From Acidobacteriota bacterium (GTDB lineage: Bacteria > Acidobacteriota > Aminicenantia > Aminicenantales > Saccharicenantaceae), in NCBI GenBank assembly GCA_033549365.1, contig JAWSUF010000006.1, forward strand, positions 141,472 through 205,471: a stretch of 64,000 nucleotides of DNA, given 5' to 3'. Below the pieces are notes generated by a model, which saw only the letters and a list, made by a program, of their open reading frames with translations, searched no databases and was not told the origin of the DNA. Positions 2,527 through 18,516 of the stretch are shown in pieces (within the stretch, counting starts at the first letter, position 1; the number at the start of each line of letters is the position of its first letter). Both the position numbers and the translations under genes were made by a program.

Positions 2527-3762
2527 TTATTCGTTTTCACGATCCTCCCAAGCAGTCTTTCGTTTCACCCGATCCATGAGAAACCGCACACCTAGGTTGT
2601 CCGACGGGTTCAGCCAGAGCATCTTCTCAAATATGTGCGCCGCCGCGTCAAAGCGTCCAAGACGCCAGAGACACAATCCATAGCCGTGCATGCAGCGCAG
2701 AAATGGACGGTTGTCGATAAGGCCCCACGCCAGCACGCCGGAAAAACCGTCACCCAAAGACAGCTCGCCGATACGCAAACCGACTTCGTAATGGTGGACG
2801 GCATCCTGGGGATGGTGGTCAAAGACGAAATTGCCCAGATGCGAATGGGCATCGAGGCAGCGCAGGTCCGCCTGGCACAGCTGCATCAAGATCTTTTCCG
2901 CCTCATCCCGCTCGCCGGCATCTTTGAGATCATTGGACCTTGTGATGGGGTCATTGAAAGGATCATCAGGGTCCTCGCCGGGCAGTACCTGCTCCATCTC
3001 GAACATGGGGCGGGGGCCGTGGGCGATGATCGGCTTGGCCCATTCCTCGATGGGTTCGCCTTCTTCTCCCCAGTACTCTTCCTTGGGGTCCCACATGCCC
3101 ATCTCTTCGAGCTCCAGTGGTACGAGATCGAGGGCCTTCACGTCGATTCGAGTCGACTGAACCTCGCCGGCGAGATACGGATGACCGCCGTAACGCCACT
3201 GTTTTCCTGGCTTGACCGTGACGATGGCGCCAGGCACCACCTCCCAAAGGCGGCTTGCGCGCAGGGTAATGATCCGGTCGCTTTTCAACAAACGGCACCG
3301 GGCGGCTCGCCCCGTGACAGATAGGGCGACCAAATCAACGGGTTTGCTCAGGTCGATGTCATCATCTGCCGCCTTGTGCTGCCGCCCGCGTCGGGAAGTT
3401 TTCTTGTTTTCGACAGGGTAAGGATCGAGGTTGAGCCACCTGCGGTAGGCGGCGATGTAACCCGCCATTGCCGATGCCTGCGGCAACACGACCTCGGAGA
3501 GCGAAATTACATATTCCGACCCGTCCTCCCGGCGGCAATTGGCCGTCAGACCGCGCCGTTCTTTACCGTCGTAGTCCACCGCGATCACCGAAACCGGTTC
3601 CCCGATGACGAAACCGTCGGCCGGTAGCGCAACGTCATCCTCAAAGGCCTGCCGAAAAGCCCAGAGCTGTTCATCATTGCCGTATGCGTCGACGGTGATT
3701 TCCTCAATAAGTCTGTCCAAGGCTTCGAGCCTCTTACCCTCTTTGGGGTTTCGCGTGCCCAT
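2527..3762 (-). CDS. Uncharacterised protein (411 aa), last gene of the hsdMS-linked unit; acidic central region, TPR-like C-terminus
   Basis: Long ORF with a 3-nt gap to the upstream gene (3766). No motif I can assign. The C-terminal WRLGRFDAAAHIFEKMLWLNP looks TPR-like. Confidence 0.5.
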   Translation of the reverse strand: MGTRNPKEGKRLEALDRLIEEITVDAYGNDEQLWAFRQAFEDDVALPADGFVIGEPVSVIAVDYDGKERRGLTANCRREDGSEYVISLSEVVLPQASAMAGYIAAYRRWLNLDPYPVENKKTSRRGRQHKAADDDIDLSKPVDLVALSVTGRAARCRLLKSDRIITLRASRLWEVVPGAIVTVKPGKQWRYGGHPYLAGEVQSTRIDVKALDLVPLELEEMGMWDPKEEYWGEEGEPIEEWAKPIIAHGPRPMFEMEQVLPGEDPDDPFNDPITRSNDLKDAGERDEAEKILMQLCQADLRCLDAHSHLGNFVFDHHPQDAVHHYEVGLRIGELSLGDGFSGVLAWGLIDNRPFLRCMHGYGLCLWRLGRFDAAAHIFEKMLWLNPSDNLGVRFLMDRVKRKTAWEDRENE

Positions 3763-3765
3763 CTT

Positions 3766-4920
3766 TTATTGATCCTTCCAGATACCGGCCTTCACCAGCC
3801 GTTGAATCAGCGACTTACGCCGCAGGTGGCCGCCCATGAACTTTGTAAATTCTTGTTGAAATTGCTTTTTGGTCGCGAACAGTTCATGGGCTTCGGCGAT
3901 GTCAACGAGTATGCGGCAGGCTTCGTCGTACCCCTGCCCCGATCCGCGCTCGATGGGTTCTCGAACCGACGCCCAGGCTTTGGGAAAATCGTTGGACAGG
4001 TTGTCCAGATACGCCCTTCGTTTCTCGCGGTGCTTGATCTCCTGTTTCTCGCGGTCCCGTTTTTGTTTCTCCAATCTGATCTGGCAGGCTTTTTCAGCGT
4101 TCTGCCGCAATTCCCCCACCGTGCGCCGGGATGCGTCGGTATCGCCCGTCTGAAGGCTGTGCCGCCATGCCTCAAAACGATTCCTGAGGGATCGTTCGGC
4201 CTGCAACCCTTGGCCCTTCAGCAATTGCTTCAGGATCGGATTGACTTCATCCCGGGGCAGGGATTTTATCCACCTCTCCATTTCCGCTTGCGAAATTACC
4301 ACCTCTTGTGCAACCTGACTGCCCATGCCGGCGCCCGCTAGCAGGTCCGGGTCCACTTCGAGGAATTCGGCCAGTGCCCGTTGGGCTGCCGTGAGGTTTC
4401 CCAATCCGCTCACGGATACTGGCTCGGTCTCTACGTCATCCATCATCTCCCCGGCCACGGCCATCAACCATCCGACATACAGACTGCGCAAGTCCCCGCG
4501 CAGCAGTTCCTCCCGCACCGGGGCCAGACGCGCCATCCAGCCCCGGCCGTCCTCCATGCCGAAGCGGTCGTAGTTTTCCGACTCCTCCAGGCTCCAGGTA
4601 ATCATCCAATGGGTCTTGGTGGCCTTGATATCCAACAGGTAAGGCACGGCCGCAGCTTTGGCGGTCTCTCGGGTCAATGCCTCGATGGGCAGCCGCACCA
4701 TGAAAATGGCCGTCATCCAGTTGGCCACATAGACATGGGCGTCGAAATAGCGCTGCATCAACTTGTGGGGGTCGCCTTTGAAATCTCCCCAATTGTATTC
4801 GTTGGTGAAGCTGACCGGCGTGATCGTGGCCCGCATGGAAAGCGCCCGCAGCTCTTCCATTTCATCCGCTGTCAGAGGCCGGTCAATGGCCAGAAACTCG
4901 TAGTATTGGTATTCGCTCAT
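3766..4920 (-). CDS. Uncharacterised protein (384 aa) in the hsdMS-linked unit
   Basis: ORF MSEYQYYEFLAIDRPLTADEMEELRALSMR..., 21-nt gap to the upstream AlbA_2-ATPase gene. No recognisable catalytic motif. Lys/Arg/Glu-rich coiled-coil-like C-terminal half. Confidence 0.5.
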   Translation of the reverse strand: MSEYQYYEFLAIDRPLTADEMEELRALSMRATITPVSFTNEYNWGDFKGDPHKLMQRYFDAHVYVANWMTAIFMVRLPIEALTRETAKAAAVPYLLDIKATKTHWMITWSLEESENYDRFGMEDGRGWMARLAPVREELLRGDLRSLYVGWLMAVAGEMMDDVETEPVSVSGLGNLTAAQRALAEFLEVDPDLLAGAGMGSQVAQEVVISQAEMERWIKSLPRDEVNPILKQLLKGQGLQAERSLRNRFEAWRHSLQTGDTDASRRTVGELRQNAEKACQIRLEKQKRDREKQEIKHREKRRAYLDNLSNDFPKAWASVREPIERGSGQGYDEACRILVDIAEAHELFATKKQFQQEFTKFMGGHLRRKSLIQRLVKAGIWKDQ

Positions 4921-4941: not shown

Positions 4942-6336
4942 TCATTCGATCACTTCCCAGTAACCACCTTTGGCTGGACCGATGCGTCGAAGTAGGCCCT
5001 GGTCCTGCAATTTGCGGATATTTCTTTCGATGGAACGCTCGGTCACGCCAATTAAACGCGCCAGTTCCGGTATGGTTAAATTTTCCTCTTGCTTTAATAT
5101 ATCCAGAATTTTCCCCGACGTTTTCCCCGACGTTTTCCCCGACGTTTTCGGTGGTTTCGCGACCAGTGTAAGTTCTCCAACCGGTTTTCGATGCACCGTA
5201 GCGGTGAAACGGCAGCCGTCACGATCATCAGTAAAATCGATCTTCGGCCAGGCATCCAGTGCCCGTTGTATGCCCGAACCCAAACCATGATAAGGCAGCA
5301 GTCCCTTGGCCACATACGAAACCAGAATTGGATTGCGGATGTTCGAATTTCCGGCCAGTATCTTTTCCACCGTCAGATTGTCCGGCAGATGGCCGGGACT
5401 GACGATCTCGATGCGGTTGTCGAAAATAAACAGGCGAACCGATGCACTTACCAAATAGTCACGGTGTACCAAGGCGTTCACTAAAAGTTCCTCAAAAACG
5501 CTTTCCGGAATTTCGGGCAATCCGGGGGCGTTCACACCTCGGCCGGCCTGAATCTTGTGGAGATTTCGCATGACGAACGCAAGGGCATCGTCGAAAATTT
5601 TCTTGAGTGGGCCGACAAAATCTTCGGTATCCACATAGTCGGTGACATGAATCTTGTTGCCCGGATATCGGATGGCCTTGACCACGAACTGGGGTTTTAT
5701 CCATTCCGGGCGTTCGGCGAACATCAGCACCCCGGCCAGGTTCAGCATGCCCTCATCAGTTGCAAGATTCATGTTCTGCAGCAACCGTAACAACTCCGAA
5801 GGCTCCTCCGGGAATTTGCGCTTGTAGACATCGCGCAGAAAGTCTTGAAACCTAAGCTTGTCCAGAGCCTCCACCCCGGCCTTGGTGGGCAGTTCGTCGG
5901 CATGGAACTGGCCGGAGACCTGAAAAAGCCTGCGCAGTTCTTCTTTGGAATTCACCCGCCGTTTGTCCGCGCCCACCTTCAGCCAAATCACACCGTTTTT
6001 ATCGAAATAGGGCTTGTCGATCCCCTTGGGCATAGTGACCACAATCACCACTTTTCCGCGGCCCACAGAGACGTTTTCAGTTTGCGGAGAAATGGGGCTG
6101 CGCACATGTTGGCTGGCCGCGTTGCTGATCAACTGGTTTATCCGGCTGACCTCGGACCGGGAAATTCCTTCCAACTCGCCATTATCCCCAATACCGATCA
6201 GAATACGACCGCCCTCACAGTTGGCAAACGCCGCCATCTCCGCTGCAAGCGCATCCACATTGCGCACATCCGCCTTGAATTGGAGGCGGCTGTCTTCGCC
6301 ATGTGCGACAAGTTTTCGGAGGTTGGAGGTATTCAT
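4942..6336 (-). CDS. AlbA_2 (Schlafen-like) DNA-binding domain + HATPase_c_4-type ATPase + C-terminal winged-HTH protein ('divergent AAA / RecG-C-terminal-like putative regulator')
   Basis: N-terminus RLQFKADVRNVDALAAEMAAFANCEGGRILIGIGDNGELEGI is typical of the AlbA_2 (PF04326) family. The C-terminus LTIPELARLIGVTERSIERNIRKLQDQGLLRRIG is a wHTH. A (TSGK)3 linker is encoded by an in-frame 12-nt tandem repeat. Confidence 0.65.
   Translation of the reverse strand: MNTSNLRKLVAHGEDSRLQFKADVRNVDALAAEMAAFANCEGGRILIGIGDNGELEGISRSEVSRINQLISNAASQHVRSPISPQTENVSVGRGKVVIVVTMPKGIDKPYFDKNGVIWLKVGADKRRVNSKEELRRLFQVSGQFHADELPTKAGVEALDKLRFQDFLRDVYKRKFPEEPSELLRLLQNMNLATDEGMLNLAGVLMFAERPEWIKPQFVVKAIRYPGNKIHVTDYVDTEDFVGPLKKIFDDALAFVMRNLHKIQAGRGVNAPGLPEIPESVFEELLVNALVHRDYLVSASVRLFIFDNRIEIVSPGHLPDNLTVEKILAGNSNIRNPILVSYVAKGLLPYHGLGSGIQRALDAWPKIDFTDDRDGCRFTATVHRKPVGELTLVAKPPKTSGKTSGKTSGKILDILKQEENLTIPELARLIGVTERSIERNIRKLQDQGLLRRIGPAKGGYWEVIE
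5109..5144. repeat. Perfect 12-nt tandem repeat x3 (ttttccccgacg) inside the AlbA_2-ATPase CDS, encoding (SGKT)n on the minus strand
   Basis: ttttccccgacg|ttttccccgacg|ttttccccgacg followed by ttttcg. In-frame (12 nt), so copy-number change adds or removes 4 aa without a frameshift. Confidence 0.9.
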
Positions 6337-7919
6337 TAAATCGGCGCTCCAGCACCTCGCAGGATCGCGATGATTTCAGACTTTACTTTATTCGGGATCT
6401 CAGCAGCCTGAGAAATAAGCACATATTTAAATGTCGTGAGGTCAAACGGCACCGCTTCATTCCGTTTTTGCGGTTCAAAAAGAAAGATGAGCCGGTTTTT
6501 TTCGTGATGCTTGAGGGCGAAACCAGCCTCGACAAAAACATTGGGACGTTGACCGGTCAGGTCGCAAATGATGATATCGGACGATGCGATGGCTTCGTAC
6601 ATGCGGTGATGGATCGGAAACGCGCCGCCTTCTTCGGTGCCCATGTCGATCAACTCAAGATTGATTTTATGATCCCTTTCTATGGCCGACAGTGTTCCCT
6701 TGAGTTGCTGGAGGCGCAAGTTTGCCTTGTTAAAGGCGTTATGCTTTGCCTCTTGGGATGGATACCAGCGCGCGAGAAATACCCGTTTGGGTACCCGCTG
6801 TTGAGCGGCCTTGAAGGTTTCCAGAAGTTGTTTGGCTGGAGAAAGCGGATCAAGCAGGCTGGTAATTCCCTCTGCGCCAAGCCATAGGCCGATGCGATCC
6901 AACAAACCCACGGCGGCATTCACTCGTTCGTCGTGGGTATTCCCGGTGCTCTCACGCCAGACGCGGGCGGCCAATTCCAGAAAAGCGTAAGTCTGGCAGA
7001 GTGAGGGGTGCTGGAATGTTAACCGGGTCAATATGTCGGCCAGGGCCGCAAAAAGCTCATCGGCAAAGGTGGTCAGAGCTGCGCGGTTTTCTGTCATGGT
7101 CGGGTCCATTTGAACCAGATTTCGTGCCGCTTCCCATAGCGAAGTCAATGGACGAAAACCAAACCTTTGCCGGACCTGTTCAGGCAAGTTGTTCAAATGC
7201 CTGCAAAGCAGGCGGGTCAGGTGCAAGTCGGGGCTGTACGCGAACTCATTGTCCGGTGTCATGGCATGGGCCGGGTCCTGCCCCAGCAAAAGCCGCAATC
7301 CGTGTTCCGATTCAAGCGTTAGAGCGGTGCTGTTGATGGTGTGGAAGATCAACGATTCGGCGTAATCGTCAGCATCATTATCAGAGGGCCCCAACAAGAT
7401 AAGACAAAAGGGGGCTAAATACTTGGTGGGAACGATTTGATCTTCCTCAAGGGTTTCGGCCATTGCCAGCCGGTGATTGCCGTCGATACGGCGAACCATT
7501 TTTTGTTCCTTGACGGCCTCCAGATCGCTACGCTGAATCCTGATCTGTTGAACCCGTTGATGCTTGCCGGCAAATCGGCGACTGACGGCAATCAGCGCCC
7601 TCTCCCCGGTTCCAACACCGATAACTCTTTCTTGCTCGGTCACATTATTAAAAACACCACGAACGGACAGAATGATTTCCGGGATGAGCCGGTTGTCGCT
7701 TTGTTCAAGGTATTTCTTGATGTCCAGGGCATGCCTTTCGTTCAATTGGCGCTGGTGGCCGACTACCCGCCCCGCCTCGGCTCCTTCATTTAGCTCATAG
7801 GGAACCGAAATCGCCGCCAAATCCCGTAAATCGGCAAAACCTCGAATGATTTTGAATATACCCAATACCCCTTCAGCGAAGTAACCCTCGAATTCGATGG
7901 TTTGGCTGACTGTGGGCAT
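6336..7919 (-). CDS. Fusion protein: N-terminal ParB/Srx-fold (DGQHR/DndB-like; motif IDGNHRL) domain + C-terminal nucleoside 2-deoxyribosyltransferase/DNPH1-like (Ndt-like) Rossmann domain
   Basis: 527-aa ORF. Residues ~40-60 RVVGHQRQLNERHALDIKKYL and ~150 VRRIDGNHRLAMAE match the DGxHR box of ParB-like nuclease/NTPase domains (ParB DGHHR, DndB DGQHR). The C-terminal SDIIICDLTGQRPNVFVEAGFALKHHEKNRLIFL resembles the Ndt/DNPH1 catalytic-Glu segment (D.GT.FE.GyA.a.GK). Start overlaps the stop of the upstream gene by 1 nt. Confidence 0.6.
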   Translation of the reverse strand: MPTVSQTIEFEGYFAEGVLGIFKIIRGFADLRDLAAISVPYELNEGAEAGRVVGHQRQLNERHALDIKKYLEQSDNRLIPEIILSVRGVFNNVTEQERVIGVGTGERALIAVSRRFAGKHQRVQQIRIQRSDLEAVKEQKMVRRIDGNHRLAMAETLEEDQIVPTKYLAPFCLILLGPSDNDADDYAESLIFHTINSTALTLESEHGLRLLLGQDPAHAMTPDNEFAYSPDLHLTRLLCRHLNNLPEQVRQRFGFRPLTSLWEAARNLVQMDPTMTENRAALTTFADELFAALADILTRLTFQHPSLCQTYAFLELAARVWRESTGNTHDERVNAAVGLLDRIGLWLGAEGITSLLDPLSPAKQLLETFKAAQQRVPKRVFLARWYPSQEAKHNAFNKANLRLQQLKGTLSAIERDHKINLELIDMGTEEGGAFPIHHRMYEAIASSDIIICDLTGQRPNVFVEAGFALKHHEKNRLIFLFEPQKRNEAVPFDLTTFKYVLISQAAEIPNKVKSEIIAILRGAGAPI

Positions 7920-9284
7920 TTAAATATCCTCCACGGGCCGTGTACCAAGGAGCATTTGCTCGACCCCGCTCGTTGCTTTTCCCAATAGTTCTTTTGATGC
8001 AGCTCTTAGCGACGCTGCTTTCAGGCGTTCTTGCATTGTTTTTTTTATCAGTTTTTGCTGAACATTGAGATTTGGAAGTGGTAACTTAAGTGACTGGATT
8101 TCTGTGCTATTTATGTTCGCCTGACCAATGATCTGCCTACTAAGGGCATTAATCTGCAGGCGACCGATTGGACCGTTAATTGCAAAAGCAACAAAATGTG
8201 GATCAGCTTTTTCGGGATCTACTCGCAATCGAATAAGATACGAGGCGAAAATGTAGGTCTCTTTCTTGTCAAAAACAGCACATTTACCCACAAGCTCCTT
8301 GCTATTTGTCCTGTTGATAAGAATATCCCCGCTGATAAGCTTAAGACTTTCTTCGATAACTTTTGATACTTTCAGATGTTTCAAATTTGATATATCCAAA
8401 TCACCGTCAACAATGTTATTCATACGGATAACACAAACCCCTTCCCCATTTGAATTTGTTTTTTCGCTTGTCCCATATTGAACGAGATCAAGAATTGCCC
8501 CTAATTCGACAATGGGGAATTTACCTTTTGTGAGGTCCATAATTGTGCTTGCGGCTTGATTGTAGCTTACACTCCATCGATCAAAATCCTTCCATTGCCC
8601 AATAATTAATTTATCAGATTTCTGGTTTTTAGGCATAGAAAGGCCAAGTTCTTGAATGAAAATTCGCATGGATTCGTCTATGGTGGCTTTAGACTTATCT
8701 TCCAATTGGATAGCTTCTGCGACAGCCGATTCCCAATATGTCACTATCTTTTTCTGAACTGAAAGTGGTGGGATCGGTATCTTTAAGGTTTCAAGAAGCG
8801 GATAAGTCAAATTCATCCTTACAGAGCCAGCAGTTGCGGCGCGCAAGGTTTGATTAAAAAATGCAGACTTTAATATAAACCAAAAAACTTCGGGAAGAAC
8901 GACGGCCTTATCAACCGAAAAAACGACGTAAGCCGGACTTATGAATGCGCCATCATGTTCCTGTGGTACCCGACCTATTGATCCGACGTTTATACGGTAT
9001 GGGTTGTAGGCAAAGTCACCCGCACTGACCTTTTTGTAGGGTTGTTTGATGTCTTTTCCCTGTGCGTCATAAGCATGGAAAATTCCATTAGTGTTGTTCA
9101 CCCCAAGTATCTTAAAGGATTCTCGTGGTGAATCATAAGGACGTATTTTTTCGTTATGTTCAGTGACGAATTCGGCAAGAGACACCAAAGGGAACTTTGA
9201 TTTTATCTTCGTTAAAAAATATTTTACGTCCCAACGTTCTAAGTCAGTAAAGCTTATTATGCGGGGTGTGGCCATTCCCATCAC
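7920..9284 (-). CDS. hsdS: Type I restriction-modification specificity subunit HsdS (two target-recognition domains)
   Basis: 454 aa. Duplicated architecture with conserved HsdS segments (…IPIPPLSVQKKIVTYWESAV…, …LPLPNLNVQQKLIKK…, ILINRTNSKELVGKCAVFDKK). Markedly AT-rich relative to neighbours. ATGA-type overlap with hsdM. Confidence 0.85.
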   Translation of the reverse strand: MMGMATPRIISFTDLERWDVKYFLTKIKSKFPLVSLAEFVTEHNEKIRPYDSPRESFKILGVNNTNGIFHAYDAQGKDIKQPYKKVSAGDFAYNPYRINVGSIGRVPQEHDGAFISPAYVVFSVDKAVVLPEVFWFILKSAFFNQTLRAATAGSVRMNLTYPLLETLKIPIPPLSVQKKIVTYWESAVAEAIQLEDKSKATIDESMRIFIQELGLSMPKNQKSDKLIIGQWKDFDRWSVSYNQAASTIMDLTKGKFPIVELGAILDLVQYGTSEKTNSNGEGVCVIRMNNIVDGDLDISNLKHLKVSKVIEESLKLISGDILINRTNSKELVGKCAVFDKKETYIFASYLIRLRVDPEKADPHFVAFAINGPIGRLQINALSRQIIGQANINSTEIQSLKLPLPNLNVQQKLIKKTMQERLKAASLRAASKELLGKATSGVEQMLLGTRPVEDI

Positions 9285-11542
9285 TCAGATCCTCCAGCCC
9301 CGGCAAAAGCTTTGGGATCGAGCAAAAACTCCCGGAACCATTCCAGGCAGGTCTTTTCGATCCTTTTCGGTTGATTTGCATTTGGATAGAGCTCGTTCTG
9401 CCCTTCCTCACCGGTGGCGGATATACCGACCTTATCTGCCTCATACATAAAAATGGGATAATCAAAACGCTCTTTTAATAGCTGTCGAGATTCGGCGGCT
9501 TTCTTCCCCTCCATCTGCTTGAGGAAATCCTTAAGCTCCTTTTGTAGCAATTTACGGCTTTCGGCATCTTTTTTTTCCTTAGCGTTTGCAATGGCGCCCT
9601 CAAGTCGCTGGGTTTCCGCAGCGATCTCGTCAGCATATTTGGCTTCAATTTCCGCTATCGCAGCGACATAGGTCTTATCAAATCGCTCTTTTTGCTGATC
9701 TGAATATTTCTGCAAGAACAGCAGAGATGCCTTTACACTGGCTCCGGAAGAGATGAACGTCTCTTGCGGCAGACTGACCACGGCCTTAAGATAGGCTCGG
9801 TCTTCGACAAATTGCCGTACATAGGCCAGCGAAGGATTGTTATAGACCCCTTCGGGGAGAACGATGCCCATGCGTCCCCCGGGTTTGAGCAAGTCCAGGC
9901 ATCGTTCTACAAAAAGGATTTCGGTTTTTATCTTGGATTCATTACTCTTTGGCAGGTCGAACAGACTGGCAATGGGTTTATTGATGGCGGACTTTACCCG
10001 CGCCTGGGCTTCTTTATAAGGCTCGCCGAACTCACGCACATAGCGGCGCTCATCTGAATCCTTCACTGCAATGTCGGATTCAAGCACCTTGTCCGAGGGC
10101 TCCACGTTTGCGCCAAAAGGGGGATTGGTGAGGACAATATCGAAGCGGGTTTCAAAGATGCCGTTGACGTTTAGAAAGCCGTCATGATGATGGACCCCGC
10201 CATGACCATCACCGTGCATGATCATGTTCATTTTGCTGGTACGGGCCATGCGGTCGTTGGCATCCGTGCCGAAAATGCAGCGGTTGGCCAGATTCCAGAG
10301 GCGCGAGCCTTCGTTGGATTGATCTATGGTTTGCTGGATCTCATCAAATTTTTCCTGAAGCAATTTGGCCCGCTTGGTGTCTGTAAGGGACTTGTCCTTT
10401 TCAACCTTTGCCCGAAAATCGTTATACTGTCGGTCGGCATCGGCCAGGATTTTTTCACGCACGATCTCAAATACCCGAATCAGAAATCCGCCGGACCCGC
10501 TGGCCGGATCGCAGACCACCTCGCCCTCCTGGGGATCGATCATGTGCACCATGAACTCCACGATGGTTCGAGGAGTAAAAAACTGACCGATTTCTCCGCG
10601 AAAGGTACGCCCCAGAAAGCGTTCAAAAGCCACACCTTTGATATCCTCGCTGGTATCGGAAAGGTTGTATTTTTCAAGTTTGCGAACAATCTCTTCGCCC
10701 GTGGCCGGTTTCAGGTTGATCCGTTCATCATCGTCGAAGATTTTATCCGCGGAATAGGATTTCTTGGTTTCCTGGAATAACGTGTCCAACGGGTTTTCGG
10801 CAATCTGCCGATTGAGCACATCAACGGTAAAGAGGTTTTCCTTACTGCGGCGGGTAAGTAGTTTACGTTCCACATATACTTTTACGAAAAGGATCTTGGC
10901 GATTTCATCAAAGGCGGCGGCCGGGTCTTTTTTTTCCCGGTTGCGGATCACGTTGTGGCATTGGTGCAGCAAGTCGGCAAACTCTTTCTCTTTGAACACG
11001 CGCAATTTCGAGAACAACTCCTCGATTTCCTTGTCCGTGGCATCGACATGGGGGATGTTCTCGATTTCTTCTATGTAGCCGGGCATCCGGTCTTTCTTGA
11101 CACGCCAGTATTTGGTTTCCCGGGAATTGTGGGTGACGAAAAAAGGCGCATCGGTCATACGGGCATAGTGTTCTCCCTGAGAATAGTCCTGGGCCTTAAT
11201 GGTCACATTGTCCGATTTGCACTCTATAATGATAAACGGGGCTTTTTGAGCGGTTTTGTCCTGGGGGCTGCGCCATATCACAAAATCCGCCCGTGCCTGG
11301 GCGCTGCCGCGACCGGAGACATCCATCTCCTCTGAGATCTGGTCCAGGATGTAACCATATTCCTCGGTCAAAACGAGCAAGTATTCCTGACGAACGCGTT
11401 CTTCAGGGGTGAGCGGCAGCCATTTTCGTCGCACCGGGCTGAAGATCTGGCTGCCTTTGACTTGGATTTCATCCGCTTTTACATAATTTTTTTTGGCCAC
11501 GCATCGCTCCCCATATCGATCATAATTTGTCATTTTCGGCAT
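9281..11542 (-). CDS. hsdM: Type I RM N6-adenine DNA methyltransferase HsdM with N-terminal PD-(D/E)xK HSDR_N-type domain (753 aa)
   Basis: MTase motif I (VCDPASGSGGFLI) and motif IV (LTNPPFG). N-terminal ~170 aa (EERVRQEYLLVL…ADFVIWRS…APFIIIECK) matches the HsdR N-terminal PD-(D/E)xK nuclease-like domain with a D…E-x-K arrangement. Confidence 0.85.
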   Translation of the reverse strand: MPKMTNYDRYGERCVAKKNYVKADEIQVKGSQIFSPVRRKWLPLTPEERVRQEYLLVLTEEYGYILDQISEEMDVSGRGSAQARADFVIWRSPQDKTAQKAPFIIIECKSDNVTIKAQDYSQGEHYARMTDAPFFVTHNSRETKYWRVKKDRMPGYIEEIENIPHVDATDKEIEELFSKLRVFKEKEFADLLHQCHNVIRNREKKDPAAAFDEIAKILFVKVYVERKLLTRRSKENLFTVDVLNRQIAENPLDTLFQETKKSYSADKIFDDDERINLKPATGEEIVRKLEKYNLSDTSEDIKGVAFERFLGRTFRGEIGQFFTPRTIVEFMVHMIDPQEGEVVCDPASGSGGFLIRVFEIVREKILADADRQYNDFRAKVEKDKSLTDTKRAKLLQEKFDEIQQTIDQSNEGSRLWNLANRCIFGTDANDRMARTSKMNMIMHGDGHGGVHHHDGFLNVNGIFETRFDIVLTNPPFGANVEPSDKVLESDIAVKDSDERRYVREFGEPYKEAQARVKSAINKPIASLFDLPKSNESKIKTEILFVERCLDLLKPGGRMGIVLPEGVYNNPSLAYVRQFVEDRAYLKAVVSLPQETFISSGASVKASLLFLQKYSDQQKERFDKTYVAAIAEIEAKYADEIAAETQRLEGAIANAKEKKDAESRKLLQKELKDFLKQMEGKKAAESRQLLKERFDYPIFMYEADKVGISATGEEGQNELYPNANQPKRIEKTCLEWFREFLLDPKAFAGAGGSE

Positions 11543-12242
11543 AACTGAAATAGCTGGTTCCGCCGCCGATGATAATGTGATCCTGGAACACCAAATCCAA
11601 AAGCCCGGCGGCTTGCTTCAATTCCTGGGTCGTCTTGTCATCGGCGGGGGAAGGGCTCGGATGCCCAGAAGGATGGTTGTGCGCCACGACGAAGGCGCTG
11701 GCTGACACACGCAAGGCTTCTTCCATCACACGCCTTACATAGACAGTGGCTTGCGTTGGGATGCCCTCCGTAATGAGCCTTTCAGCAAGCATGCAATTCT
11801 GGCCATCCAGGAGGATGGATAGAAAGCATTCCTGGCGCTGACCTTCAAATCGTGGGCGAATGTAATCAACCACCGCCGCAGCATTGGTGAAATCCTTGGG
11901 TCGGGTTGATTGTCTTCGGACTCTTTTGCCAATTTCAATGGCGGCTTTCATTTGCGCCACCTTGGCGATACCCATTCCCGGGATGGCGAGAAGCTCCTCT
12001 ATGTGAGCGCGGTCGATACCGCTTATACCGTTAAACATAGACATCAACCGGCGGGCCAGATCTTCTGCCGATTGTCCCGCTTTACCAATGCGAAGCAAAA
12101 TCGCTAGAAGTTCCCCATCTGAGAGGCCTTCAGCACCTGAATGGAGGAGTTTCTCTCGTGGGCGTTCGGTCACAGGCCAATCCTTGATAGCTTGGCGTTT
12201 AGATTTATGTACCCCGTTTGATGTAGTTTGGCCCTTAACCAT
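11520..12242 (-). CDS. radC: RadC-like JAB/MPN (JAMM) domain protein
   Basis: 240 aa with an HhH-like N-terminus and the JAMM motif AFVVAHNHPSGHPSPSPADD. Overlaps the hsdM start by 23 nt. Confidence 0.8.
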   Translation of the reverse strand: MVKGQTTSNGVHKSKRQAIKDWPVTERPREKLLHSGAEGLSDGELLAILLRIGKAGQSAEDLARRLMSMFNGISGIDRAHIEELLAIPGMGIAKVAQMKAAIEIGKRVRRQSTRPKDFTNAAAVVDYIRPRFEGQRQECFLSILLDGQNCMLAERLITEGIPTQATVYVRRVMEEALRVSASAFVVAHNHPSGHPSPSPADDKTTQELKQAAGLLDLVFQDHIIIGGGTSYFSYAENDKL

Positions 12243-15351: not shown

Positions 15352-16488
15352 TCACATCTTCCCCATGGCGTCCCGTGGATTCGGACCGGATATTTTCTCC
15401 AGTTCCTTCATGAGCTCGCGGACACGCTGGTCTTCGAACGGCGGCGGAACGATGACGACCTCGACGAAAGCGTCGCCGCGCACCTTTTTTCCGGGAAGCG
15501 AGACCCCCTTGTTCCGAAGCCGAAATTTCTGCCCGGACCGGGTTCCCGGCGGAATTCGGATGGTTTCGGGTCCGTGGATGGTCGGCACCTCGATTTTGGA
15601 CCCCAGTGTGGCTTCGGGGACCGTGATCGGAACCCGGGCATGGATATGAGGGCCTTCGCGCCGAAAATAGGCATGGGGTGCGACCTCGATGGAAATATAG
15701 AGATCGCCCGCCGTTCCGCCCGAACCCGGTGCGGCATTCCCCTTTCCGGCGATTCGGACCCTTGATCCGGTATCGACGCCGGCCGGAATGCGGACGGTGA
15801 TATTTTCGGTTTTCTGATAAAGGGCGCGTCCGCCGCAGGAGGAACAAACCTCGCCCGCATCTCCGCCGCTCCCCCCACACTCCCGGCAGGGCGAGGAGAA
15901 TTTCATGAAGCCTTTCTGATGAACCGTGCGTCCCGATCCGCCGCAGGAGGAACAGGACGAATGCCGGCCTTTTCCCGCGACGCGTCCGGCACCGCCGCAG
16001 TCGGCACAGGCGGCCAGACGGGTGATCCGGATCCGGGTCTGGAGTCCGTGAATGGCATCTTCGAAGCCGACCTTCATCGCATACTGGAGATCTTCGCCCC
16101 GGACCGGACCGGGTGCGGTGCGTCCGAATCCCGCTCCACCTCCTGCGCCGCCGAAAAGGTTTTCGAAGATATCCCGCATGGAGGAGGACCCGTAATTCGA
16201 AAATTCGAAACCGTCAAAACCCGGAGCGCCTCCTCCCGAGGAGGCCCACTCCCCGGCTCCGGGCGGCGAGTCTCCGACCGTCCCGAACTGGTCGTACTGG
16301 GCCCTCTTTTTCTCGTCGCTCAAGACGGCGTAGGCTTCCTGGATGTCTTTGAATCGGGCCTCGGCGGCTTTATCCCCCGGATTGAGGTCGGGGTGATGTT
16401 TGCGGGCCAGCTTCCTGTAAGCCTTCTTGATCTCGGCCGCGGAGGCGCCGCGTTCGATGCCGAGGGTTTCGTAATAATCTTTCTTCAT
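15352..16488 (-). CDS. dnaJ: Molecular chaperone DnaJ
   Basis: J-domain ([36 protein letters not shown]), G/F-rich region, four CxxCxGxG zinc-finger repeats ([30 protein letters not shown]). Confidence 0.9.
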
Positions 16489-16561
16489 GGCCCGACCCGC
16501 ATTCCGGATTTCGACCGGAAATGAGTCCGGGACGGCGGCGTCCCGGACTCATTCCAGGATA

Positions 16562-18490
16562 TCAGTTCTTCGACTCGTCGTCGACCACTTCGGCGTCGAT
16601 GACATCGTCGTCGCCTCCCCCGGGCGGCGGGGTGTCGCCTCCGGGCCGGGCACCGGGTCCGCCCGCCTGAGGGCCGGCCTGTTGCTGGGCGGAGGCCTGC
16701 TGGTACATCATCTCGGTCAGTTTGTGCGAAGCCTTCTGCAGCGATTCCGTGGCGGCCTTGATCTTGTCCAGGTCTTCGGATTCGACGGCCTTTTTGGTTT
16801 TTTCAATTTCAGCCTCAAGATTGCGGGCCTCTTCCTCGGGAATCTTGTCGCGGTTTTCGCGGAGCAGTTTTTCGAGACCGTAGACAAGCTGGTCGGCCTG
16901 ATTGCGGGCGTCGATGACCTCGCGGCGTTTCTTGTCCTCGACGGCATGGGACTCGGCGTCCTTGACCATCCGGTCGATTTCGCCTTCTTCGAGACCGCTG
17001 TGTCCGGTGATGGTGATGGCCTGCTGTTTGCCCGTGCCCTGGTCCTTGGCCGAGACGTGGAGAATGCCGTTGGCGTCGATATCGAACGTGACCTCGATTT
17101 TGGGAACGCCCCGCGGCGCAGGCGGAATGCCGTCGAGGTGGAATCGGCCAAGGGTCCGGTTGTAGGAGGCCATTTCGCGCTCGCCCTGCAAAACGTGAAT
17201 TTCGACGCTGGGCTGGCTGTCCGAGGCCGTGGAGTAGATCTCGGTTTTCTTGGTCGGGATGGTCGTGTTGCGCGGAATCATTTTTGTAAACACGCCGCCC
17301 AAGGTTTCAATCCCCAGGGTGAGCGGGGTGACATCGAGAAGCAGGACATCCTTGACGTCGCCCGAAAGGACGGCGCCCTGGATGGCCGCGCCGACGGCCA
17401 CGACCTCGTCGGGATTGACACCCTTGTGAGGTTCCCGGCCGAAGATCTCCTTGACGATCTGCTGTATGCGGGGCGCCCGGGTTTGACCGCCGACGAGGAT
17501 GACCTCATGAATGTCTTCGGCCTTGAGGCCGGCATCGGCCAGAGCCTGACGGCAGGGAGCCACGGATTTCTGAACGATGGGCTCCATGAGATCCTCGAGT
17601 TTGGCCCGGGTCAGTTTCATCAACAGGTGCTTGGGACCGGAGGCATCGGCCGTGATGAAAGGCAGGTTGACCTCGGTCTCCATAAGGGATGAGAGTTCGG
17701 TCTTGGCCTTCTCGGCCGCCTCTTTGAGTCTCTGCAGGGCCATTTTGTCTTTGGTCAGGTCGATGCCCGATTCCTTGCGGAACTCGTTGACCAGCCAGTC
17801 CTGAACGACCTGGTCGATATCGTCGCCGCCGAGGTGAGTATCGCCGTTCGTCGATTTGACTTCGACCACACCTTCCCCGACTTCCAGGATGGAAATGTCG
17901 AAAGTGCCGCCGCCGAAATCATAGACGGCGATGATCTGATCCTTCTTCTTGTCCATGCCGTAGGCCAGAGCCGCGGCCGTGGGTTCGTTGATGATCCGAA
18001 CGACATCGAGGCCGGCGATCTTCCCGGCGTCTTTCGTGGCCTTGCGCTGACTGTCGTTGAAATAGGCCGGAACGGTAATGACGGCTTTTTCGATTTTTTC
18101 TCCGAGATACTCCTCAGCCGCCTTTTTCAGCTTCTGCAAAATGTAAGCGGAAATCTCCGGCGGGGCGTATTTCTTGCCGAGGGCCTCGACACGGACATCG
18201 TCGTTTTCGGCCGCGCCGACCTTAAACGGAACCTGGCTCTTTTCCTTGGATACTTCTTCATAGCGCCGCCCCATGAACCTCTTGATGGAATAAATGGTGT
18301 TTTCGGGGTTGGTGACCCGTTGTCTTTTGGCCACCTGTCCGACAAGGATTTCTCCTTTTTGGGTGAAGGCCACGACGGACGGCGTCGTCCGCCCGCCCTC
18401 TTCGTTCGGAATAACCGTGCCCTTGTCTCCTTCCATGATGGATACGACGGAGTTTGTCGTTCCCAAATCGATACCAATTATCTTTGTCAT
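16562..18490 (-). CDS. dnaK: Molecular chaperone DnaK (Hsp70)
   Basis: [15 protein letters not shown]…, DLGGGTFD, full Hsp70 architecture. Start taken at the second ATG (18488-18490), which is preceded by AGGAGG. Confidence 0.95.
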
Positions 18491-18516
18491 GATGCCTCCT
18501 AATTTAGTCAAATGAT

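Follow-up and report, generated by a model that had tools for sequence, protein, structure and literature searches.

A predicted ParB-N-glycosidase fusion protein accompanies a Type I-like methyltransferase-specificity module in diverse bacteria

The M-S-X cassette and its distribution

We describe here a gene that lies in a 64,000-nucleotide stretch of DNA from an Acidobacteriota bacterium (assembly GCA_033549365.1, contig JAWSUF010000006.1, positions 141,472 to 205,471 of the forward strand), the whole of which we refer to as the window. The gene, here called X, is an ATG-initiated open reading frame (ORF) of 527 amino acids on the minus strand at positions 6336 to 7919. A sequence-only reading of the window had singled it out as an unusual fusion of a ParB/DGQHR-like domain with a domain resembling nucleoside 2-deoxyribosyltransferase (Ndt) and DNPH1. 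All motif strings quoted in that reading are found in the translation of 6336 to 7919, and the strand, which it left unstated, is minus. GHQR occupies residues 54 to 57 (7749 to 7760), the segment VRRIDGNHRLAMAE includes DGNHR at residues 146 to 150 (7470 to 7484), and SDIIICDLTGQRPNVFVEAGFAL includes NVFVEAG at residues 460 to 466 (6522 to 6542), all on the minus strand. The domain calls of the earlier reading stand; what it did not mention is the genomic context, in which X is the third gene of a cassette that also encodes a methyltransferase (M) and a specificity subunit (S).

All genes of the cassette are on the minus strand. The product of M (9281 to 11542) combines an N-terminal PD-(D/E)xK nuclease domain (Pfam HSDR_N_2) with a C-terminal N6-adenine DNA methyltransferase domain (Pfam N6_Mtase). 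Its motifs RAD(F) and (I)ECK are encoded at 11282 to 11293 and 11216 to 11227, motif I at 10484 to 10510, and NPPF at 10112 to 10129. M scores 775 bits against the PADLOC model MTase_I and 305 bits against the NCBIfam model of MAD2, below the cutoff of 720, and is a MAD2-like paralogue. S (hsdS, 7920 to 9284) encodes a Type I specificity subunit with two target-recognition domains (Pfam Methylase_S; PADLOC Specificity_I, 374 bits) and reaches 40 bits against the NCBIfam MAD5 model, for which the cutoff is 400. M and S overlap by 4 nucleotides (nt). The TAA of hsdS is followed directly by the ATG of X, with the sequence GGAGGA, a putative ribosome binding site within hsdS, just upstream, and X is translationally coupled to hsdS. 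The stop codon of X overlaps the next ATG (TAATG), which belongs to a gene for a Schlafen AlbA_2 protein with HATPase_c_4 and winged helix-turn-helix domains (4942 to 6336; Pfam) that is likewise translationally coupled to X. At the other end of the cassette, a gene for a RadC-like JAB protein (11520 to 12242; NCBIfam RadC, 204 bits) overlaps the start of M by 23 nt. There is no HsdR homologue in the 64-kb window.

X is a real, widely conserved, uncharacterized protein. A word-indexed protein search returned 614 homologues at an E value of ≤1e-3, an exhaustive search of 50%-identity representatives returned 1367 clusters at ≤1e-3 and 101 at ≤1e-30, and a scan of GTDB, with one genome for each species, revealed relatives encoded in 369 genomes; such numbers rule out a reading frame that arose by chance. 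The homologues are mostly 527 to 545 amino acids long, and about 65% identity is kept in Pseudomonas, Zhongshania, Metallumcola (Bacillota), Dehalococcoidia, and Geobacteraceae. Source annotations describe them as hypothetical, "DGQHR domain-containing," or "DUF4071 domain-containing" proteins. Protein searches of phage collections gave no match, those of plasmid collections gave one weak partial match, and a scan of IMG/VR gave only eight weak relatives (23 to 30% identity). No match to homologous cassettes was found in complete Escherichia coli genomes by megablast or blastn. The single plasmid match (NZ_CP109788.1 from Leisingera thetidis, 329125 to 329373) covers the DGNHR region at 39% identity within a gene annotated as "N-6 DNA methylase," a hint of a fusion between ParB and methyltransferase domains.

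The surroundings of X were compared in the best 80 of the 369 species genomes with X relatives, and genes upstream of X were counted in the 67 of these loci with at least 4.2 kb upstream of it. The 80 loci span Desulfobacterota, Pseudomonadota, Nitrospirota, Acidobacteriota, Verrucomicrobiota, Planctomycetota, Bacteroidota, Gemmatimonadota, Cyanobacteria, and Bacillota, and include one archaeon, a methanogen of the Methanomicrobiales. A homologue of M is encoded upstream of X on the same strand in 63 of the 67 loci, with S between the two (detectable by BLAST in 53 of the 67). The distance from the end of the preceding ORF to X usually falls in the range of −4 to +14 nt, and this obligate gene linkage of X to M-S is kept from 85% down to 27% identity of X. 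On long contigs from Pseudomonas, Metallumcola, and Zhongshania, the conserved genes are M (HSDR_N_2 plus N6_Mtase), S, and X and nothing else, and no helicase gene occurs within 10 kb. Since the RAD ... ECK residues, motif I (DP..GSGGFL), and motif IV (LTNPPFG) are at least 90% conserved across 73 M homologues, M is probably both a nuclease and a methyltransferase. In one clade, M remains about 65% identical while X falls to about 30%, which suggests that X variants are exchanged on a conserved M-S chassis.

Four of the 67 loci appear to lack M upstream of X. One of these (L050) reflects an ORF-calling artifact and another (L043) is rearranged; in the remaining two, of Bacillota type, the X homologue follows HsdR. 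In both (L075:4781-7960 and L084:4758-7961), a full EcoR124-like HsdR with HSDR_N, ResIII/SWI2_SNF2, T1R_D3, and EcoR124_C domains lies directly upstream of X, and in L084 the two ORFs immediately before the hsdR gene have the sizes of HsdM and HsdS. These loci would thus hold a complete hsdM-hsdS-hsdR operon, and X can also be associated with Type I operons that have HsdR. Among the 80 loci, only these 2 have a full-length HsdR, and one further locus (L035) has a partial match.

RadC is encoded directly upstream of M in about a quarter to a third of the 80 loci by tblastn, in several phyla (L007, L008, L010, L014, L015, L017, L018, L024, L025, L028, L049, L052-L054, L056-L058, L060, L062, and L063); a stricter ORF-based count gives 16 of 67. 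It may be an optional first gene of a mobile cassette, distinct from the housekeeping radC. Genes flanking the X loci encode integrases, insertion sequence elements, ThsB TIR, SIR2-STAND, DUF4062-NACHT, GmrSD, HEPN, and HipA proteins and are typical of defense islands. We regard the conserved, widespread (RadC)-M-S-X cassette, which is without HsdR in nearly all loci, as a more important result than the fusion itself.

Domains of the X protein

A full-length AlphaFold2 (AF2) model of X, of medium confidence (predicted local distance difference test [pLDDT] score, 72), comprises three domains. A sequence search of the PDB with the X family profile returned nothing, even at an E value of ≤10. 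The N-terminal domain (residues ~1 to 215; 7275 to 7919, minus strand) folds like ParB/Srx proteins of the DndB/DUF262 type, and a beta-rich insert occupies residues ~88 to 130. When residues 1 to 232 were modeled with a 35-sequence alignment, the pLDDT was 86 and the predicted template modeling score was 0.81. The best profile match of this domain of the window protein is to NCBIfam TIGR03187 (DGQHR), over residues 30 to 228, with an E value of 2e-8 and 34.3 bits (below the cutoff of 58.85). It also matches Pfam DndB (PF14072; E value, 0.011; 15.2 bits, below the cutoff of 29.1) and, weakly, PADLOC DpdB (E value, 0.006). Across the family, the DndB signal holds: 27 of 30 close members match this Pfam model, as do 24 of 52 diverse ones (best E value, 7e-7), and two members match GmrSD_N.

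Conservation was assessed in 52 full-length relatives, down to 21% identity. Invariant in the N-terminal domain are R26, G27, S38, Q56 and R57 of the GHQR motif, E81, all five residues of the DGNHR box (D146, G147, N148, H149, and R150), which is the counterpart of ParB Box II and of DGQHR, and F192. The resulting series of motifs (QR ... PE..L ... DGNHR ... FH.IN) is one that we take to be parallel to those of DndB and DUF262. X thus shows both the fold and the Box II-type arginine (GxxR/DGxxR) that define the ParB/Srx superfamily. The Q of DGQHR is always N in this family, which makes X a sister family outside TIGR03187; with this box and with scores under the cutoffs, X belongs neither to the DGQHR family nor to the DndB family (PF14072).

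The middle domain (residues ~216 to 375; 6795 to 7274, minus strand) is all-helical in the AF2 secondary structure and contains an invariant W346. It has no match in Pfam or NCBIfam and no recognizable family. One relative of 598 amino acids (P0203) carries an N-terminal HARE-HTH domain ahead of its ParB-like and helical parts, and its last ~190 residues are unmatched by the X family profile and are without a Pfam hit; it may be an effector-swapped variant.

From residue 376 onward (376 to 527; 6339 to 6794, minus strand), the full-length model shows a five-stranded, flavodoxin-like domain related to Ndt, DNPH1, MilB, and TIR proteins. In a Foldseek search, which scores sequence plus structure, the single match at an E value of ≤0.001 is MilB (7.8e-4), and the next fifty are mostly DNPH1/Rcl and Ndt structures with target TM-scores of 0.5 to 0.63. 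The window protein matches neither PF05014 (Nuc_deoxyrib_tr) nor PF10137 (CAP12/Pycsar TIR) at an E value of <0.1. Among its relatives, PF05014 matches 27 of the 52 diverse members (best E value, 7e-9), one of which, P0256, scores above the gathering cutoff (35.4 versus 28.8 bits). PF10137 matches 24 of the 30 close and 16 of the 52 diverse members, and the scores seen individually are all below the 24.7-bit cutoff (20.3 bits for P0139). A PADLOC TIR effector model matches X at 4.4e-9. Overall, the domain is closest to the MilB, DNPH1, and Ndt N-glycosidases and more weakly related to the CAP12/Pycsar TIR domain; it can equally be called TIR-like or Ndt-like, and its N-glycosidase activity is a prediction.

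In the NVFVEAG motif, N460, V461, E464, and G466 are invariant in the 52 sequences, and D453 is at least 90% conserved. Glu464 (codon at 6528 to 6530) lies in the helix after strand beta-3 of the AF2 model. The catalytic Glu of Ndt enzymes and that of TIR enzymes occupy this same place, in the helix after strand 3, and Glu464 is predicted to serve in catalysis as nucleophile or acid. Strong purifying selection acts on the signature residues of both domains. Since Q56, R57, E81, D146 to R150, N460, V461, E464, and G466 are invariant and D453 nearly so, both domains look active.

Both halves of the architecture proposed in the sequence-only reading are borne out, the N-terminal one (here ~215 amino acids) by the TIGR03187 and DndB matches and the C-terminal one (here ~150 amino acids) by the PF05014 matches and the MilB, DNPH1, and Ndt folds. 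The two residues whose conservation it proposed to check, the Arg of DGNHR and the Glu of VEAG, proved invariant down to 21% identity. The profile and structure comparisons revealed neither an N terminus of another fold nor kinship of the C terminus with an unrelated Rossmann family devoid of the catalytic Glu, the two outcomes that it had named as refuting. Its expectation of Ndt chemistry on deoxynucleoside monophosphates (dNMPs) needs a qualification: the kinship with Ndt and DNPH1 is upheld, but that with the TIR-like CAP12/Pycsar domain is equal. The TIR-like profile matches make NAD+ at least as likely a putative substrate as dNMPs.

Kinship with known systems and proposed function

In layout, X most resembles GmrSD, BrxU, and SspE. 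It shares with them an N-terminal ParB/Srx domain with QR, DGxxR, and F..IN motifs, an order in which the effector comes at the C terminus, after a putative sensor of nucleoside triphosphate (NTP) and DNA, and a place beside DNA modification systems. In contrast to these proteins, which end in an HNH nuclease, X ends in an Ndt/TIR-like predicted N-glycosidase; its box is DGNHR rather than DGQQR or DGQHR, and it is tied to an N6-adenine M-S module. Neither the window protein nor the close and diverse family members have a Pfam match to HNH or DUF1524, and X is therefore not a Type IV enzyme of the GmrSD/SspE kind. DndB and the DGQHR proteins (TIGR03187 and PF14072), together with DpdB, provide the best sequence-profile matches for residues 30 to 228, but X scores below the curated cutoffs, has N in place of Q, and carries the extra Ndt-like domain. 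None of dndACDE, dpdA (TGT), or dpdC occurs among the window neighbors or in six annotated homologous loci, and without these partner genes membership in Dnd or Dpd is ruled out.

The Ndt, DNPH1/Rcl, and MilB superfamily offers the closest folds to the C terminus of X and has the Glu in the helix after beta-3. X differs from these enzymes and from the Ndt-like effector of retron Ec86 in its fusion to a ParB domain, and the window protein reaches no significance with PF05014. The retron effector, which defends by depleting adenine nucleotides (bioRxiv 10.1101/2023.08.16.553469), is nevertheless a precedent for an Ndt-like antiphage effector. No reverse transcriptase domain is encoded by the genes flanking X in the window or in the six annotated loci L001 to L006 (no search for a noncoding RNA was made), so X is not part of a type II-A retron by this evidence. 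The use of Ndt-like and TIR-like domains as antiphage effectors, acting by destruction of adenine nucleotides or of NAD+, is established; TIR-like examples are CAP12/Pycsar, by the name of its Pfam family, and the DUF4062 TIR-like NADases. X differs from CAP12/Pycsar and the TIR NADases in that the family scores seen are below the Pfam cutoff, that it has no STING, SAVED, or cyclic-nucleotide sensor domain, and that no cyclase gene is nearby.

The methylation module itself resembles that of MADS, in which MAD2 and MAD5, with effectors other than HsdR, give immunity (bioRxiv 10.1101/2023.03.30.534895). M is a MAD2-like fusion of HSDR_N_2 with an N6-methyltransferase, S is MAD5-like, and the two form a Type I-like module without HsdR. 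However, both are far below the equivalog cutoffs, and X has no counterpart in the MADS models. MAD6, MAD7, and MAD8 are mandatory in MADS (bioRxiv 10.1101/2023.03.30.534895). Eight neighboring window proteins gave no PADLOC or NCBIfam match to mad1, mad3, mad4, or mad6 to mad8, and the absence of MAD6 to MAD8 rules out a MADS subtype. Like PrrC and RloC, X would be an NTPase-regulated effector encoded beside hsdS, and it may back up restriction; those proteins have unrelated folds (an ABC-type ATPase plus an anticodon nuclease), and PrrC loci keep HsdR. A Type I restriction-modification (R-M) system comprises HsdR, HsdM, and HsdS, of which the window has only counterparts of the last two; a canonical Type I system in which X is an rlo-type insert between hsdS and hsdR is ruled out by the absence of HsdR.

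X thus appears to combine a GmrSD/SspE-like layout, an Ndt/TIR-like chemistry, and a relation to M-S like that of PrrC and the MADS effectors, while being a member of none of these groups. PADLOC-DB v2 and NCBIfam r20 contain no model for X, only weak domain matches, in agreement with the earlier statement, which the literature comparison also supports, that the architecture belongs to no named defense system. Neither a ParB plus Ndt/TIR fusion nor an M-S-X triad is described in the full-text literature searched (subscription-only papers were outside its scope), and the main text of a 2025 survey of ParB-fold fusions makes no mention of TIR or deoxyribosyltransferase domains (bioRxiv 10.1101/2025.10.10.680097). 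X is best classed as a combination of known kinds, namely, the ParB-NTPase sensor-effector, the R-M-linked effector, and the Ndt/TIR nucleotide-depleting effector, rather than as categorically new.

We consider the M-S-X trio a good candidate for an undescribed methylation-based phage defense system. Our preferred, though tentative, explanation, to which we give somewhat less than an even chance, is that X serves, as effector or regulator, as the third subunit in a compact Type I-like, methylation-based, HsdR-less (RadC)-M-S-X system for self/non-self discrimination, with a glycosidase that depletes NAD+ or (deoxy)nucleoside monophosphates. M and S would act as a sequence-specific N6-adenine methyltransferase that marks self DNA, and M also has an intact PD-(D/E)xK domain, as in MAD2 of MADS and Type IIB enzymes. 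The N-terminal domain of X would bind NTP and DNA and serve as a switch, the helical domain would probably dock onto M-S or mediate oligomerization, and the C-terminal domain would be an N-glycosidase using Glu464, in place of the HNH nuclease of GmrSD and SspE. Unmethylated or otherwise foreign DNA, met by the M-S module, the ParB domain, or both, would trip the switch and free the glycosidase to cut the N-glycosidic bonds of NAD+ or (deoxy)nucleoside monophosphates, depleting pools that the phage needs and arresting the infected cell.

Several of these steps have parallels. In GmrSD, BrxU, and SspE, the state of the DNA is sensed by a ParB-like NTPase of the DUF262 type, which controls the nuclease at the C terminus, and COG1479 proteins, also ParB-like, that occur in fusion with effectors and in linkage with R-M loci have been proposed to be cell-death modules (Makarova et al. 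2013, PMC3632139). DndB-like ParB proteins bind ATP or GTP via the Box II arginine (bioRxiv 10.1101/2025.10.10.680097).

Several points count against our explanation. The defense role, the M-S-X complex, and the enzymatic activity are predictions from sequence and analogy, and the substrate cannot be read from the sequence. The conserved nuclease motif of M means that restriction may do without X. An accessory or backup role fits the two HsdR-bearing loci (L075 and L084) better than does replacement of HsdR. Finally, the scores of the window protein are below all curated family cutoffs (TIGR03187 and DndB; PF05014 and PF10137 do not match at an E value of <0.1), so that the domain calls depend on evidence from the family as a whole and from structure.

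It is also conceivable, though unlikely, that X is a second line of defense against phages with hypermodified DNA. Its DUF262-like ParB domain would sense the modified DNA, as in GmrSD, and its MilB/DNPH1-like domain would hydrolyze modified precursors, for example, hydroxymethyl-dCMP or hydroxymethyl-dUMP, starving precisely the phages that escape methylation-based restriction by M-S. Fold similarity, however, leaves the substrate unestablished, and the TIR-like profile matches point equally to NAD+. Moreover, the tight, near-universal operon tie to one M family exceeds what would be expected of an independent, Type IV-like add-on.

The kinship of the N-terminal domain raises the question of whether X is instead a DndB-like regulator that tunes M-S methylation or restriction through DNA and NTP binding, its Ndt-like domain being a noncatalytic nucleotide sensor. 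DndB, the nearest named family of this domain, is a reported ATP-modulated regulator (PMC10853773), and M already has conserved nuclease and methyltransferase motifs. Nevertheless, X has no HTH domain, and Glu464, N460, and D453 are invariant or nearly so at 21% identity, a pattern typical of catalytic residues; we judge this role to be quite improbable.

A further suggestion is that X acts on DNA itself, as a DpdB-like ParB ATPase joined to an Ndt-like domain that cleaves or exchanges bases near sites chosen by M-S, in either base-excision restriction or a second modification, comparable to a fused DpdB-DpdA. The weak DpdB and DndB profile matches point this way, X is fused to no other nuclease, and it always adjoins a DNA sequence-specific module. 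The general chemistry of the Ndt family, base exchange on deoxyribose through a covalent Glu intermediate, also suits the suggestion. DpdB is a ParB-like ATPase required for DpdA base exchange in DNA (summarized in PMC12839542). On the other hand, the close structural relatives all act on free nucleosides or nucleotides, and no base-precursor biosynthesis genes are linked to X in the window or the annotated homologous loci. We also know of no Ndt- or TIR-fold enzyme that is established as a sequence-specific DNA glycosylase. We therefore give an action on DNA little credence, and no more to its boldest form, in which M-S-X would be a restriction class without backbone cutting, an M-S-guided, NTP-gated ParB module placing an Ndt-fold enzyme on unmethylated foreign DNA so that bases are excised or exchanged. 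If true, this would make the enzyme the first DNA N-glycosylase or transglycosylase of the Ndt/TIR fold to be directed by sequence. Least credible of all is that X is an unrelated passenger lodged in R-M loci with no functional tie to M-S, for although such loci are hotspots for embedded genes (e.g., the Campylobacter jejuni rlo genes; PMC3632139) and the window cassette also holds the variable AlbA_2 gene, the same M-S-X order and strand occur in 63 of 67 loci, with abutting or overlapping stop and start codons, across phyla and down to 27% identity.

If the cassette does defend against phages as we prefer to think, it would be a compact three-gene system present in hundreds of species of many phyla. 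It would join Type I-like M-S epigenetic self/non-self discrimination to the destruction of nucleotides or NAD+ by an effector of the Ndt/TIR fold, two themes hitherto pursued separately, and would indicate that a ParB/DUF262 sensor like that of GmrSD and SspE can drive an effector other than a nuclease. Moreover, it would offer a tractable model in which to learn how M-S modules without HsdR, such as that of MADS, turn recognition of unmethylated sites into immunity. The C-terminal domain could be a source of new nucleotide N-glycosidases, and R150 and E464 are ready-made positions for mutation.

Accessory and neighboring genes

Homologues of the AlbA_2 gene occur near X in only two of the 80 related loci (L070 and L079), and the gene is a window-specific accessory outside the conserved core. 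It contains a perfect tandem repeat of three 12-nt units at 5109 to 5149, which encodes TSGKTSGKTSGK. Other occasional accessories of the loci are DUF5655, HEPN_LA2681, and HNH genes, and the first two were rejected as core components because each occurs in <10% of loci. The DUF5655 gene follows X in Pseudomonas (L001:11629-12555) and precedes M in five other loci (L065, L067, L071, L078, and L086). Its product is 49 to 51% identical between Pseudomonas and the Bacillota loci, where X and M are only 27 to 31% identical to those of the window, which suggests that it is an independently mobile accessory. A 513-amino-acid HEPN_LA2681 protein is encoded directly after X in four Bacillota loci (L065:7227-8768, L069:9464-11011, L078:9492-11033, and L086:9449-10990), and in L067 S and X are separated by an inserted gene for an HNH protein.

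In the window, the GC content of hsdS is 0.40 to 0.45, that of the rest of the RadC-M-S-X-AlbA_2 region is ~0.50 to 0.54, and that of the flanks is 0.58 to 0.62. The low value of hsdS would fit target-recognition domains that were shuffled or recently acquired. A search for att-like direct repeats flanking this lower-GC island found nothing convincing, and the window has no tRNA gene. Downstream of the cassette, at 2527 to 4920 on the minus strand, are two ORFs of 384 and 411 amino acids, which have no family match apart from a weak C-terminal TPR match in the second and no homologues in the 80 related loci. An ORF on the plus strand at 16487 to 17692, with a Pfam NAD-GH match at an E value of 2e-81, lies antisense to dnaK (16562 to 18511, minus strand) and is most likely a noncoding antisense frame of HSP70 rather than a real gene.

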